Part shown: positions 1-63,636 of the stretch, piece by piece
Numbering within the stretch: position 1 is the stretch's first letter
Layout of the letters: each line of letters begins with the position of its first letter
Origin: an uncultured Gemmatimonadales bacterium
Lineage (GTDB): Bacteria > Gemmatimonadota > Gemmatimonadetes > Gemmatimonadales > GWC2-71-9
Direction of reading: 5' to 3'
Length of the DNA stretch: 64,000 bases
NCBI GenBank assembly: GCA_963755425.1
Contig: CAVWJI010000004.1
Span: forward strand, 61,621 to 125,620
The notes under the pieces: model-generated
What the model saw: the letters and a program-made list of their open reading frames with translations, nothing else
Told to the model about the DNA's origin: nothing
The model's database searches: none
Translations under genes and position numbers: made by a program

Positions 1-56
1 TCGCGCTCGATGGTGTAGCGGTCGGCGAGGCTTGCCCTGAGGCGGTCGATCGTCAT
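1..56 (-). CDS. Ser/Thr protein kinase, N-terminal codons only (gene continues left of the window)
   Basis: Reverse complement of 1-56 translates as MTIDRLRASLADRYTIER. This is the same N-terminal signature as the full kinases in the window (xxDRYxIERELGxGGMATVY). Confidence 0.6.
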   Translation of the reverse strand, partial: MTIDRLRASLADRYTIER

Positions 57-353
57 GCCGATCCTCGAGCCAGAGAGCCGAGCGGGCTCCGTCGTGGGTC
101 AGGCGGACTGGCGTCGGGGGAAGCGGCTCCGGGAGCGGTTCGCCGCCCACATATTATACCTGTCATCGCGCAGTCCGGCTCCCTCGACCGGCGGCGCGAG
201 CCACACCGCCGGCTGGAGGAAGCCACCGTGACCAGGCACATCGGCGAAGAAGAGCCCGCCGCGGAGCCCTCGCGACGCCGCTTCATGCAGGAGGTCGCGC
301 TCGGCTCCGCCGCCGTGGTGCTCGGCGCCGGCCGGGCGCGGGCGTCGGCGGTC
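1..353. repeat. Left copy of a diverged direct duplication (kinase 5' end + divergent intergenic region + GH116 5' end)
   Basis: Aligns by eye with 3976-4328. Identical runs include a 22-mer (catattatacctgtcatcgcgc) and a 40-mer (tcgcgctcggctccgccgccgtggtgctcggcgccggccg). Confidence 0.8.
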
Positions 354-365
354 GCATGTATCGGT
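228..365 (+). pseudogene. Orphan 5' fragment of a GH116-type glycosidase gene (Tat-like signal peptide only)
   Basis: GTG start preceded by GGAGGAAG. It encodes ..EPSRRRFMQEVALGSAAVVLGAGRARASAV, matching the N-terminus of the 4203..7027 gene. Homology stops near 353, next to the vapC stop. Confidence 0.7.
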
Positions 366-380
366 CATGAACCGGGCACT

Positions 381-824
381 CTATGGCTCGGCTATCATGG
401 GATCGATGACCTCAAGGAACGGAAACCGGTGGAAATCGGTGTCGCGGGTACAGATCCGGTGGATGCCGTGCTCTCGCATGAGACCGGCGGTTTCGGCGTC
501 ATGCCAGATGTTGCCAGCGAGGCCGGGGACCTCGTCCACCAGACCCCCGAGCACCCCGCGATGGCGGTCGGTCGGCACCAGGAGGCCGAGCCCGGGCGCA
601 GCAGCAACCGCTTCGAGGAAATCATCCGCCGCGCGGGCGGACCAGGGATGACGGAGCACCCGGGGATGCGTCACCACCCGCAGAAATTCATAACAGATTC
701 CCCAGGTCAGGTACCATGCGGCGCTCCCCTGGCGCCACTGTCCGACCAGGGCACGGCACCGCGTGTGCTCCGGAGCGCTCGTGTCGGCGGCATACACCAG
801 GACATTGGTATCCACCACGAACAC
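381..824 (-). CDS. vapC: PIN-domain ribonuclease toxin VapC
   Basis: 147 aa starting MFVVDTNVLVYA, with the conserved acidic residues typical of PIN domains. The GTG start overlaps the antitoxin stop by 1 nt (TAGTG). Confidence 0.85.
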   Translation of the reverse strand: MFVVDTNVLVYAADTSAPEHTRCRALVGQWRQGSAAWYLTWGICYEFLRVVTHPRVLRHPWSARAADDFLEAVAAAPGLGLLVPTDRHRGVLGGLVDEVPGLAGNIWHDAETAGLMREHGIHRICTRDTDFHRFPFLEVIDPMIAEP

Positions 825-1051
825 TAGCGGCCTTCCATGGCGCGGTAGAGCGCGTCCCGGTCGGCAATGTCGACCGATGCTCCGCCGCTGTCGAAGGACG
901 GCAACGGCGGCAAGGGTTCGCGGTCACGTCGCGGCCGCAGCAGGTTGCGGAGCGCCGTCTCGACCAGCTCCGACATGGTGCTCCCCGTCCGGGCGGCCTC
1001 GCGGCGGAGGCGGGCCATCACCGTGTCGTCGATGTTGAGAGTCGTTTTCAT
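824..1051 (-). CDS. vapB: VapB-family antitoxin
   Basis: MKTTLNIDDTVMARLRREAARTGSTMSELVETALRNLL is the classic VapB antitoxin N-terminus. I chose the ATG at 1051; the ORF track starts further upstream at 1120. Confidence 0.75.
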   Translation of the reverse strand: MKTTLNIDDTVMARLRREAARTGSTMSELVETALRNLLRPRRDREPLPPLPSFDSGGASVDIADRDALYRAMEGR

Positions 1052-1116
1052 ATGGATAACCATATTGCAGATATGGGAATATGTCAAACTGGGTCCGTTC
1101 GGTTTCCGGCACGGTC

Positions 1117-1308
1117 TCACCTTGGTCGCGACGCGGCAGTCGGTGGTGATTGGGCGAACGGGCGCGGAACGGATGGGGCCGGACCGACCGTACGATCGTG
1201 CTTGCGGTCGTGGGCGAACCAGGCCGTGGCCATGCCGCCGGCGCCGAGTTCGCGCTCGATGCGGTACCGGCTGGTGAGGGCCGCGGTAGGGCGCTCGGCC
1301 TGGCTCAT
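1117..1308 (-). pseudogene. Ser/Thr kinase N-terminal fragment (about 40 homologous codons, then unrelated sequence)
   Basis: MSQAERPTAALTSRYRIERELGAGGMATAWFAHDRKHDR matches the kinase N-terminus and glycine loop. No catalytic core follows. Confidence 0.7.
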
Positions 1309-1370
1309 GCTGCCATTGTGCACCGTGCTCAACCTGGTGCAGTTGTTTGTGGGGGAGACATGAGGCATCG

Positions 1371-61368: not shown

Positions 61369-61696
61369 CCTACTCCGCCCGCATCACCTCCACCGGGTCC
61401 ACCCGCAGCGCGCGGCGGGCGGGCACCAATGTCGCGACCGCGGCGGCGAGCAGCAGCAGTACCGGCACTGCCACGAACGTCGCCGGGTCGTGGATGCCGA
61501 CGCCGTAGATCAGCGACGACAGCACCCGTGCCAGCGCCCAGGCGCCGGCCAGCCCCGCCCCGATTCCGATCACCGCCACCAGCGCCATCTCCCGCGACAG
61601 CAACCTCAACAGGTTCGACCCGGACGCGCCGAGGGCCGCGCGAATGCCGAGTTCGCGATGGCGCTGGGTGACGCCATAGCTCACCACTGCGGCGAC
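61369..61696. repeat. Left boundary repeat of islet 2 (orphan copy of the FtsX/ADOP permease 3' end)
   Basis: 328 nt aligning with 63308-63636, with about 15 substitutions and one 1-nt indel by hand alignment. Confidence 0.9.
61370..61687 (-). pseudogene. Orphan C-terminal fragment (last ~105 codons) of an ABC-transporter FtsX-like permease
   Basis: ..RHRELGIRAALGASGSNLLRLLSREMALVAVIGIGAGLAGAW..RRALRVDPVEVMRAE*. There is no upstream permease sequence. Confidence 0.85.
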
Positions 61697-61709
61697 CGGA
61701 GGGTAGTCG

Positions 61710-61738
61710 TTGACAATATCCGTAACACTACGTATGTT
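61710..61738 (+). promoter_or_regulatory. Sigma70-like promoter TTGACA-N17-TATGTT at the islet 2 left edge
   Basis: A perfect -35 hexamer and a 17-nt spacer. Caveat: it overlaps the only ATG/TTG start candidates of the downstream ORF, so either the promoter or the start call is wrong. Confidence 0.35.
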
Positions 61739-62795
61739 CGGTAAACCTGAAGACTACAACATACGAACGGACGGTTCCGTTGCGGATATTCTTGGGGGGG
61801 TCGGACTCATACTGGTTTCGGGGCTGACAGCCTGTCAACAGCCGACCGCTCTGGTGCTGAATTCGACTCTCAGTAAGGATGTTCGACCGCCGTGCCAGTT
61901 GGGGTGCTGGGACGTTGATTCATTCCCTGATTCGGTTGGCGTATTTATCAACTACGAAGTGACACCTGACGAATGCAGCGGCGAAGAGATTGACGACATC
62001 GATGACGACGGCCTCTCGGACTGGTGCGAGGATCTTATCGCCCAGCACTTTGAGCCAACGCTCCGTTACACCAGCTTCGACGACATAAGTGGTGAGCCGG
62101 CATACGCGGTGCGACCCCTCGGTTTCACGGGTGGTCGGTACTACGTGCTGGTTGCCTATTTGCTAAGTGAGTACCTCGATCAGGGAACCGGACATTGTCA
62201 CGAGTGGGACTTGCCGGATCACGTCACCTGTGGGCACTTTGGCGACAGCGAAGCCATCATCCTCAGGGTGCGATACGAGGCCTCAATCCATCATTGGGTG
62301 GTCGACGCTGCTTGGTATTCGCAGCACGACAACTACGGTCGCTATTGTGTCGGATCGACCAACGAGATCAGTGCGTCCACCGCATACTTGTATGCCGGTA
62401 CCGATTGTTCTTATGGATCCGGCGACGACTTTCCGGAAGCGCTTGGCTATGCGGGTAATGACGGCGGCAATCCCATCGCGCACGTGTCGATCAGCAAGCA
62501 CGCGAACTACGCGTCGGAGGGCGAGTGTCAAGGCGGAAATCCCATCCATTTTCTCGGAATCGTTGTATGGGCGGATGATTGTGAGAGCAACACTTCGCTG
62601 GGCGTGGATGTGATTGGCTACACCCGCAACGTCGGATCAAGCGATCTTCACCAGTTGGATTGCACGATGTCGTACGCCATCTACGACGACAGCTATGAGG
62701 AGTGCTACTGGACCGGTTCCACGTTCGGAGGATGGAGCGGCGCTTCGCCGCAATCGGATCCGTGCGTGAATCGACTCTTGGGGTTCGGATACTAG
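61734..62795 (+). CDS. Cysteine-rich (14 Cys) putative lipoprotein with acidic Ca-binding-like motif and NLP/Vps62-like core
   Basis: Lipobox-like LVSGLTAC, then DDIDDDGLSDWCED (DxDxDGxxD-type), then FEPTLRY..CGHFGDSEAIILRV..AAWYSQHDNYGRY. The start is uncertain (61710 TTG or 61734 ATG). Confidence 0.55.
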   Translation: MFGKPEDYNIRTDGSVADILGGVGLILVSGLTACQQPTALVLNSTLSKDVRPPCQLGCWDVDSFPDSVGVFINYEVTPDECSGEEIDDIDDDGLSDWCEDLIAQHFEPTLRYTSFDDISGEPAYAVRPLGFTGGRYYVLVAYLLSEYLDQGTGHCHEWDLPDHVTCGHFGDSEAIILRVRYEASIHHWVVDAAWYSQHDNYGRYCVGSTNEISASTAYLYAGTDCSYGSGDDFPEALGYAGNDGGNPIAHVSISKHANYASEGECQGGNPIHFLGIVVWADDCESNTSLGVDVIGYTRNVGSSDLHQLDCTMSYAIYDDSYEECYWTGSTFGGWSGASPQSDPCVNRLLGFGY

Positions 62796-62796
62796 A

Positions 62797-63276
62797 ATGC
62801 ACAGAGTCACCACGGTCGTCGCCTCGTTCCTGTTGGCGTTCAGTGGGGCTCTGGCGCCCTGCCGGGCCCAGCGAACCGTGTCGGTCGACAGCGGCCGTCT
62901 AGTGCGGCTCGACTTCCGGAGCGGCAGACATACGGACGGGCGCTTGCTCTCCGCGATCACCGGAGCAGGTGCCGCGATTCGGTACTGTCGCTGCCCCGGA
63001 CCGCCGTGTCAGCACGGTGACACGGCGCGGATCGTCGTCATCTCTTGGAAGGACATTGAGCGGATTCAAGTCAATCACGGGAACCGCGGCGTCCTTGGCG
63101 CGCTGATTGGCCTCGGCGTTGGAGCCGCCGTCTCGCCCCTGTACGGCTCGGCGTGGCAATGCGAGACGCCCGGTTGTCACGACCACGATGTGCGTAACGA
63201 AATTGCGATTACTGTCGGCCTCGGCATCCTTGGCTATGCGCTAGGGCGGACCAGCATCCGATGGGGCGCACCGTAA
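62797..63276 (+). CDS. Small exported protein with 6 Cys and two C-terminal glycine-rich TM segments
   Basis: Signal peptide MHRVTTVVASFLLAFSGALAPCRAQ. The start is 1 nt after the upstream stop. Confidence 0.55.
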   Translation: MHRVTTVVASFLLAFSGALAPCRAQRTVSVDSGRLVRLDFRSGRHTDGRLLSAITGAGAAIRYCRCPGPPCQHGDTARIVVISWKDIERIQVNHGNRGVLGALIGLGVGAAVSPLYGSAWQCETPGCHDHDVRNEIAITVGLGILGYALGRTSIRWGAP

Positions 63277-63307
63277 GGTACTGACGTCATCGCCGGGCCG
63301 CGTTCCA

Positions 63308-63636
63308 CCTACTCCGCCCGCATCACCTCCACCGGGTCGACCCGCAGCGCGCGGCGGGCGGGGACCAATGTCGCGACCGGCGGCGGCGAGCAGCAGCAGT
63401 ACCGGCACCGCCACGAACGTCACCGGGTCGTGGATGCTGACGCCGTAGATCAGCGACGACAGCACCCGTGCCAGCGCCCAGGCGCCGGCCAGCCCCGCGC
63501 CGATACCGATCACCGCCACCAGCGCCATCTCCCGCGACAGCAACGTCAACAGGTTCGACCCCGACGCGCCGAGGGCCGCGCGAATGCCGAGTTCGCGATG
63601 GCGCCGGGCCACGCCATGGCTCACCACCGCGGCGAC
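63308..63636. repeat. Right boundary repeat of islet 2 (3' end of the full-length permease gene)
   Basis: See 61369-61696. Confidence 0.9.

Follow-up and report, generated by a model that had tools for sequence, protein, structure and literature searches.

Duplicated gene ends around accessory genes in a Gemmatimonadales genome: two candidate insertion-duplication scars and a probable paralog-array remnant

In phage 21 and e14 at icd, and in ICESt1 and ICESt3 at fda, the element supplies a replacement for the end of the gene at which it resides. Gene ends were also duplicated when a plasmid carrying an end of lacZ was transferred into E. coli: 56 of 60 integrants contained a lacZ-end duplication, 109–950 bp long in the 14 integrants sequenced, which the authors ascribed to a single crossover with a circular molecule, and the four true events of homology-facilitated illegitimate recombination (HFIR) gave deletions (PMC3240628). 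An HFIR displacement model has been proposed for the effector-immunity arrays of the type VI secretion system (T6SS) in V. cholerae (PMC5361080). We describe here a 64 kb stretch of Gemmatimonadales DNA (the window; positions 61,621 to 125,620 of contig CAVWJI010000004.1), with a guanine-plus-cytosine (GC) content of 67%, in which three pairs of direct repeats, each made of gene termini, bracket other genes. The pairs had been listed in a sequence-only reading of the window; alignment confirms all three, and their lengths and identities are far above chance for 64 kb. In cases 2 and 3 the repeats are gene 3′ ends enclosing foreign cargo, and relatives have the corresponding sites empty. Case 1 is different in kind, and the suggestion that one common route produced all three is not supported.

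The window was compared with related loci from a species-level genome collection, about 1.15 Mb in total, the nearest being in two long-read metagenome-assembled genomes (MAGs), L009 (CAVOMQ01) and L002 (OY970263.1). Case 2 lies within a conserved operon that in the window encodes an esterase, a RimK-like ATP-grasp protein, a protein of 475 amino acids (aa), GCS2 and peptidase C26; the 475-aa protein is 85% identical to its relative in L009 and 79% to that in L002. The features of case 2 are as follows.

51976–52940, minus strand: Xre/MbcA-type antitoxin gene (52431–52940) and RES toxin gene (51976–52428), assigned by Pfam
52973–53034, minus strand: detached copy, the last 20 codons and stop of the 475-aa gene, followed on the coding strand by Xre-RES
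53035–57544, plus strand: cargo of 4.5 kb, GC 0.641, four genes
53144–54001: cargo gene, AraC-like regulator
54409–55578: cargo gene, TolB-like propeller protein
55575–56291: cargo gene, DsbA/thioredoxin-like protein
56288–57526: cargo gene, 412-aa protein (orf412), no family assigned
57545–57606, minus strand: gene-attached copy, where the intact 475-aa gene (57546–58973) has its true 3′ end

The two copies are direct, 62 nucleotides (nt) long, and differ at three positions, all of them synonymous third-position changes. Along the coding strand the order is the 475-aa gene, its stop codon, 19 nt separating the gene-attached copy from the stop codon of the last cargo gene, the four cargo genes on the opposite strand, the 62-nt copy with its own stop, Xre, RES and GCS2. 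The 475-aa gene is intact and aligns with its relatives through residue 475. Its earlier 'ATP-grasp' label finds no support in Pfam, NCBIfam or PDB; the RimK-like ATP-grasp gene is its upstream neighbour (58903–59853).

The uninterrupted form of this site is present in three relatives, L002, L009 and L012, in which the 475-aa gene is followed directly by Xre-RES with one copy of the 62 nt, such that the junction from the 475-aa gene to GCS2 spans about 1.0 kb. Downstream of the detached copy, the sequence carries on as it does behind the single copy of L002 and L009. About 60 other Gemmatimonadota loci have no insert, and there the 475-aa gene and GCS2 adjoin or overlap (−54 to +163 nt). Because the three single-copy loci have Xre-RES without the cargo and the other loci have neither, Xre-RES is an earlier insertion in one subclade, and the 4.5 kb cargo a later gain seen only in this window. 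The cargo was not found in any of the 95 loci holding the 475-aa gene, and orf412 has no close homologue except one 100% identical entry (P0010), which presumably derives from the genome that the window is part of. A third, remnant copy of the 475-aa gene end was sought beside Xre-RES and not found. The overlap between the 475-aa gene and GCS2 is ATGA in most relatives, and the C-terminus changes from ...VVEPR to ...VVARRE in the Xre-RES subclade (window region 51962–57546). About seven tandem GCTTGCC heptamers separate the 475-aa gene from Xre in L009 (~11430–11490), and are present in neither the window nor L002.

Case 3 lies at the right end of the window, behind an ADOP/FtsX permease gene, and comprises these features.

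60718–61328, minus strand: DUF4160 (61008–61328) and DUF2442 (60718–61098), a toxin-antitoxin-like pair assigned by Pfam
61369–61696, minus strand: detached copy, the last 108 codons and stop of the permease gene with its canonical C-terminus, then DUF4160 and DUF2442
61697–63307, plus strand: cargo of 1.6 kb, GC 0.589, two genes
61710–62795: cargo gene, Cys-rich putative lipoprotein, an open reading frame (ORF) of 361 aa (orf361)
62797–63276: cargo gene, small membrane protein
63308–63636, minus strand: gene-attached copy, the 3′ end of the permease gene, which continues past the window edge
59775–63360: block near-identical to L002, containing the esterase, the DUF pair, the detached fragment, the cargo and the start of the gene-attached copy

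These copies, 328 and 329 nt long and direct, differ by 14 substitutions, 8 of them at third codon positions, and one indel (~95% identity). The order is permease, stop, two opposite-strand cargo genes, the 328-nt 3′-end copy, DUF4160/DUF2442 and the esterase. An extra base near 63379 in the gene-attached copy shifts the frame of the last ~24 permease codons, so that the match to the ADOP model ends at 781/803 and that to FtsX at 103/120; the permease gene is intact in L002, and the extra base is possibly a sequencing indel. The earlier statement that one copy keeps the host gene whole is therefore true of case 2, but not of case 3 or of case 1, whose GH116 and kinase genes carry two frameshifts each as assembled. 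The empty counterpart of case 3 is found in L009, where a single permease end is followed by an unrelated 174-aa ORF and no cargo. L002 has the same insertion as the window with both copies, the detached fragment bearing a 139-nt internal deletion.

A promoter-like site (61710–61738; TTGACA, a 17 nt spacer and TATGTT, 10/12 matches) lies exactly at the inner junction of the case 3 cargo, and the cassette may bring its own promoter; translation of orf361 probably does not begin at the listed TTG. A strong predicted hairpin (63620–63660; −13.2 kcal/mol, z = −3.65, equalled in 1 of 200 shuffles) spans the gene-attached permease repeat at its inner boundary and could have favoured breakage or joining there, and an imperfect 21-nt tandem occupies 63635–63676. 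This is the only boundary with a notable hairpin, and folding of the case 2 junctions gave nothing beyond shuffles.

Both cargo segments are compositionally foreign. Their GC contents (0.641 for case 2 and 0.589 for case 3, against 0.674) are the lowest of any window segments of the same size, and GC at third codon positions (GC3) is 0.65–0.75 in cargo genes (~0.70 in case 2) compared to 0.86–0.89 in host genes. Low-GC cargo is a property of cases 2 and 3; the intervening DNA of case 1 has a normal GC content of 0.68. The claim that no recombinase is encoded between the repeats stands against Pfam, NCBIfam, PHROGs and PADLOC; the case 2 and 3 cargo has no matches to recombinase, phage or defence families, PDB sequence searches were also negative, and the window ORFs that were scanned with Pfam include no recombinase. 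The only cargo protein adjoining a junction, orf320 of case 2, has relatives that match AraC-type HTH_18; its AlphaFold model is too poor to use (predicted local distance difference test score 39.6). A transposon target-site duplication was rejected as the source of the repeats, which are 62 and 328 nt long (versus 2–14 bp); no inverted repeats flank the cargo, and no transposase was found. A tRNA-linked island was likewise ruled out, as the window contains no tRNA gene.

We read cases 2 and 3 as scars of insertion-duplication, left by a Campbell-type single crossover with a circle, and give this reading about an even chance of being correct. The donor DNA would have come from a related strain and contained that strain's allele of the conserved gene's 3′ end, with the accessory genes lying downstream of it. 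As a circle, it would have undergone one homologous recombination with the resident gene end, presumably dependent on RecA, giving the order gene, 3′ end, cargo, second 3′ end and original downstream neighbours. In both cases a single contiguous chromosomal segment is present as direct repeats on either side of the insert, and the insert is lacking from the single-copy, uninterrupted sites of L002, L009 and L012 (case 2) and L009 (case 3). On one side both repeats extend 1–3 nt past the stop codon, and on the other they break off abruptly within the gene. If cargo naturally followed the gene copy of the donor strain, donor-recipient homology would run out at the stop, and the repeat with it. 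Only one illegitimate joint would be needed, the closure of the circle, at the point where cargo meets the detached fragment. The differences between the copies fit a gene end that evolved as a working allele in another strain. Campbell-type integration, which the sequence-only reading had offered for all three pairs, is thus retained for cases 2 and 3 on the basis of geometry, empty sites and foreign recombinase-free cargo, but not for case 1.

Several points weigh against this interpretation. No donor with the order gene, stop, cargo was found, and the cargo proteins have few or no close homologues. A 62 nt repeat is short for efficient RecA-mediated crossover. Copies that are donor/recipient hybrids are not demonstrable, there being three informative sites in case 2 and gene-conversion mosaicism in case 3, and no circular form is observable from sequence. 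An integrase elsewhere in the genome is possible and compatible with the 64 kb that are visible. Finally, the damaged copy in case 3 is the gene-attached one, which the model neither predicts nor contradicts.

The history of case 3 extends beyond this genome. The ~3.6 kb block (window 59775–63360; L002 ~5700–9100) is 98.6–99.4% identical between the window and L002, with the cargo itself at 99.4%, and its surroundings are only 70–90% identical: identity is 73–92% to the left of the block and about 70% in the permease body, and the right breakpoint lies inside the gene-attached permease repeat. Because a block of ~99% identity sits within flanks of 70–90%, the case 3 structure has passed between lineages as a unit, by ordinary recombination in flanking genes, and did not arise in this genome; the notion of independent acquisitions here is correspondingly abandoned. 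Under the insertion-duplication reading, the structure once formed would spread as a unit by double-crossover recombination in the flanking conserved genes, which would account for its presence in both the window and L002. The repeat copies are 93–94% identical between the window and L002, lower than the unique parts, and form a mosaic of shared variants, which together point to gene conversion between the copies. Across 43–64 kb of the window the nearer relative switches several times between L002 and L009, a pattern that indicates frequent homologous recombination between lineages in this region.

Case 1 lies at the window's left end and is made of gene 5′ ends, with the following features.

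1–353, no strand assigned: copy A, the first 18 codons of kinase A (1–56, minus strand), a 171-nt intergenic region and the first 42 codons of a truncated GH116 gene (228–353, plus strand)
381–1120, minus strand: vapC (PIN domain, 381–824) and vapB (RHH domain, 824–1120)
1180–1308, minus strand: N-terminal fragment of a third kinase paralog, 43 codons, the 'kinase debris' of the sequence-only reading
1371–4105, minus strand: kinase B, a Ser/Thr kinase with a PD40-type propeller, start codon ~4030, 5′ end inside copy B
3975–4328, no strand assigned: copy B, the kinase B 5′ end, the intergenic region and the GH116 signal peptide
4203–7027, plus strand: GH116 glycoside hydrolase gene, with two frameshifts as assembled, near 5230–5258 and 5615–5622

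The repeat is ~353 nt, direct and about 83–87% identical, and its left boundary falls outside the window. Between the copies are vapC, vapB and the third-kinase fragment, all as first described, together with the body of kinase B, which has two frame-disrupting indels near 3428 and 3331 that simple homopolymer slips do not explain. GH116 begins with a twin-arginine translocation (TAT) signal peptide, encoded by its first 42 codons. The TAT motif and hydrophobic core of this peptide are identical in the two GH116 starts and its N-terminal region differs, and this conservation of motif and core in both 5′ copies suggests two once-functional kinase/GH116 units. The kinase part of the repeat (nt 1–56) belongs to a nine-copy paralog family and matches seven other paralogs, and the upstream sequence is common to kinases A and B only. 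We found no syntenic relative for GH116; the closest homologue, 78% identical (L057), lies in an unrelated context and its 5′ region does not align. We read case 1 as what is probably left of a second divergent kinase/GH116 pair, cut short next to vapBC within a tandem array of kinase paralogs. Its geometry is set apart from that of cases 2 and 3 because it consists of 5′ ends, because the copies are ~85% identical, and because its 'cargo' includes the repeat unit's own kinase.

The window as a whole encodes seven full-length Ser/Thr kinase paralogs, an eighth (kinase B, frameshifted as assembled) and fragments, as well as peptidases and transporters. The seven paralogs are at 8063–19461, 28683–33780 and 38574–40940, several of them directly in tandem; their kinase domains are conserved, with 64–87% nucleotide identity to kinase B, and their C-terminal regions are dissimilar (that of kinase B being of PD40/propeller type). 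The M16 peptidase region (21441–24402), broken up into four ORFs, contains several changes of coding frame as judged by GC3, owing either to pseudogenes or to indel errors, a point relevant to the reliability of the other frameshifts. A toxin-antitoxin-like pair lies within ~30–40 nt of the detached copy in each of the three cases, vapBC, Xre-RES and DUF4160/DUF2442 respectively. Two of these have type II toxin-antitoxin pairings by Pfam (PIN with RHH/VapB, and RES with Xre/MbcA/ParS), and DUF4160 with DUF2442 is only toxin-antitoxin-like.

Among the other explanations for cases 2 and 3, we consider it unlikely, although worth serious attention, that they are decayed or non-autonomous integrative elements, like cis-mobilizable elements (CIMEs), with an attB at the gene 3′ end and a tyrosine or serine integrase that is lost or acts in trans. 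The classic att geometry is one of direct repeats made from a gene 3′ end, with the gene itself restored; the repeats here reach as far as the stop codon, and the cargo composition is foreign. Yet neither the cargo nor the Pfam-scanned ORFs of the window contain an integrase, an excisionase or remnants of them, the case 2 site has not been reused in the ~60 Gemmatimonadota loci with the 475-aa gene/GCS2 junction, apart from Xre-RES, the case 2 and case 3 repeats have no common sequence or shared core, and 328 nt is long for an att repeat. Entry of linear DNA from a related strain by HFIR or another one-ended event, anchored in the conserved gene and with an illegitimate joint upstream of the resident stop, is in our view improbable. 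It would displace the old 3′ end downstream, exactly as proposed in PMC5361080, with one illegitimate junction sufficing, and it fits the allele-like synonymous differences. In experiments, however, HFIR gives recipient deletion rather than duplication (PMC3240628), whereas recipient DNA is duplicated and not deleted in cases 2 and 3, and the joint would have to form within a segment already paired with the donor.

A local origin, by tandem duplication or unequal crossover that included the gene end, followed by deletion or replacement and with no foreign circle, is favoured for case 1 only, and otherwise we regard it as distinctly improbable. Case 1 lies within an array of 8–9 kinase paralogs, kinases A and B specifically share their upstream region, the TAT motif and hydrophobic core persist in both GH116 copies, and a plain tandem paralog pair with similar 3′ ends is seen in L018. 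In cases 2 and 3, by contrast, the sequence between the copies is unlike that after the second copy, it is compositionally foreign, and relatives have clean single-copy sites. That the repeats are an assembly artefact, with strain variants or paralogs collapsed or chimerically joined in the MAG, has a very slight chance of being true. The closest relatives are long-read MAGs that themselves contain split genes, and there are frame changes in several window genes. Against this, both case 1 junctions are spanned by a short-read contig (L001, 934 nt) that is 100% identical to window 320–1253, and the case 3 structure is present in the independently assembled L002; because these independent assemblies agree on cases 1 and 3, the repeats are not mis-assembled paralogs, the outcome that would have undone the original observation. 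Case 2 is known from one assembly, and a chimera would not lead back into the same genome, at the same gene end, through a 62-nt duplicate with synonymous differences only.

The insertion-duplication geometry recurs only weakly among the related loci. Self-alignment of the ~1.15 Mb of related loci returned the L002 copy of case 3, ordinary tandem paralogs and short tandem repeats, and a single new example, in L056, with no further instance at the case 2 or case 3 sites. In L056, at an unrelated locus, direct repeats of 877 nt (4808–5684 and 7549–8425; 91.6% identity, with 44 of 74 mismatches at third codon positions) bracket a homologue of the case 3 lipoprotein gene. Attached to the left copy is a whole DUF2975 gene; the right copy opens with a truncated fragment in which there is a stop codon. 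The DNA between them has a GC content of 0.567 compared to 0.66, and the geometry is that of cases 2 and 3. Copies of the lipoprotein gene in other genomes are in unrelated contexts, in at least three of which a small ORF follows, and no flanking repeats were detected around the gene there. Host-sequence duplications thus flank this cassette family in two of six independent contexts (328 nt in the window and L002, 877 nt in L056), numbers that are small and, as recurrence, suggestive. Outside the contexts of this family, the ~1.1 Mb of related loci gave one further example, case 2, and recurrence beyond the window is weak. In L103, between H+-PPase and ychF, a lipoprotein/small-ORF cassette is flanked by 126-nt inverted repeats (7531–7656 and 9593–9718; 89% complementary), in intergenic DNA full of short repeated motifs. 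A shared vehicle for orf361-like cassettes was rejected, as the L103 arms occur nowhere else in the loci compared and the other copies have no inverted repeats. A cassette-carrying Gemmatimonadota contig, L102, encodes ComEC-like and ComFB proteins (12076–14632), which hints at DNA uptake machinery in the phylum; the window itself does not encode them. We think it doubtful that Gemmatimonadales carry integrase-free 'Campbell cassettes', in which accessory genes with a host gene end would loop out as circles and re-enter by single crossover, RecA being their only means of mobility.

If the insertion-duplication reading is true, small accessory cassettes would stack behind conserved genes and pass between species of this uncultured soil phylum by host homologous recombination only, with the gene-end duplicates as the only trace left. 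Genome-wide searches for such gene-end scars could then reveal gene gain driven by recombination and help to separate it from integrase islands, with the caution that similar-looking repeats, as in case 1, can have a different origin. The mechanism is a textbook one and the evidence comparative rather than direct; the value of these loci is as a documented natural example.

Compared with described systems, cases 2 and 3 resemble phage 21 and e14 at icd, and ICESt1, ICESt3 and the CIMEs at fda, in that a duplicated gene 3′ end brackets an island and the gene-attached copy restores the frame; the CIMEs are a further likeness in having no integrase of their own. They differ from the icd and fda elements in the absence of an integrase or its remnant, of recurrent targeting in ~60 loci and of a shared core, and in a cargo of 1.6–4.5 kb of ordinary accessory genes. 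The T6SS effector-immunity arrays (PMC5361080) and the orphan arrays of Rhs and contact-dependent inhibition (CDI) systems are similar in that a module enters through homology to a conserved gene without a mobility gene, and the old 3′ end is pushed downstream with its partner (a toxin-antitoxin-like pair in cases 2 and 3). In place of polymorphic toxin genes, the host genes are a permease gene and a conserved metabolic-type gene, and the duplicated part is a terminal coding segment instead of the conserved region before a variable tip. Case 1 has its nearest likeness in the S. aureus lpl cluster (PMC2568036), where the duplicated unit spans a gene end, an intergenic region and the end of a neighbour within a paralog array; the case 1 unit differs in joining two divergent 5′ ends and in being interrupted by vapBC. 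Closest to cases 2 and 3 is Campbell-type integration itself. The lacZ experiment (PMC3240628) differs in that the event here is natural, the segment (~95% identical in case 3) is diverged, and the circle and the role of RecA are deduced; the repeats are 62 and 328 nt against 109–950 bp, that of case 2 falling below the experimental range. The proposed mechanism is nonetheless of an already known kind, in which direct repeats of a contiguous segment flank the insert, the gene is complete if the segment holds its 3′ end, and no element-encoded recombinase is required.

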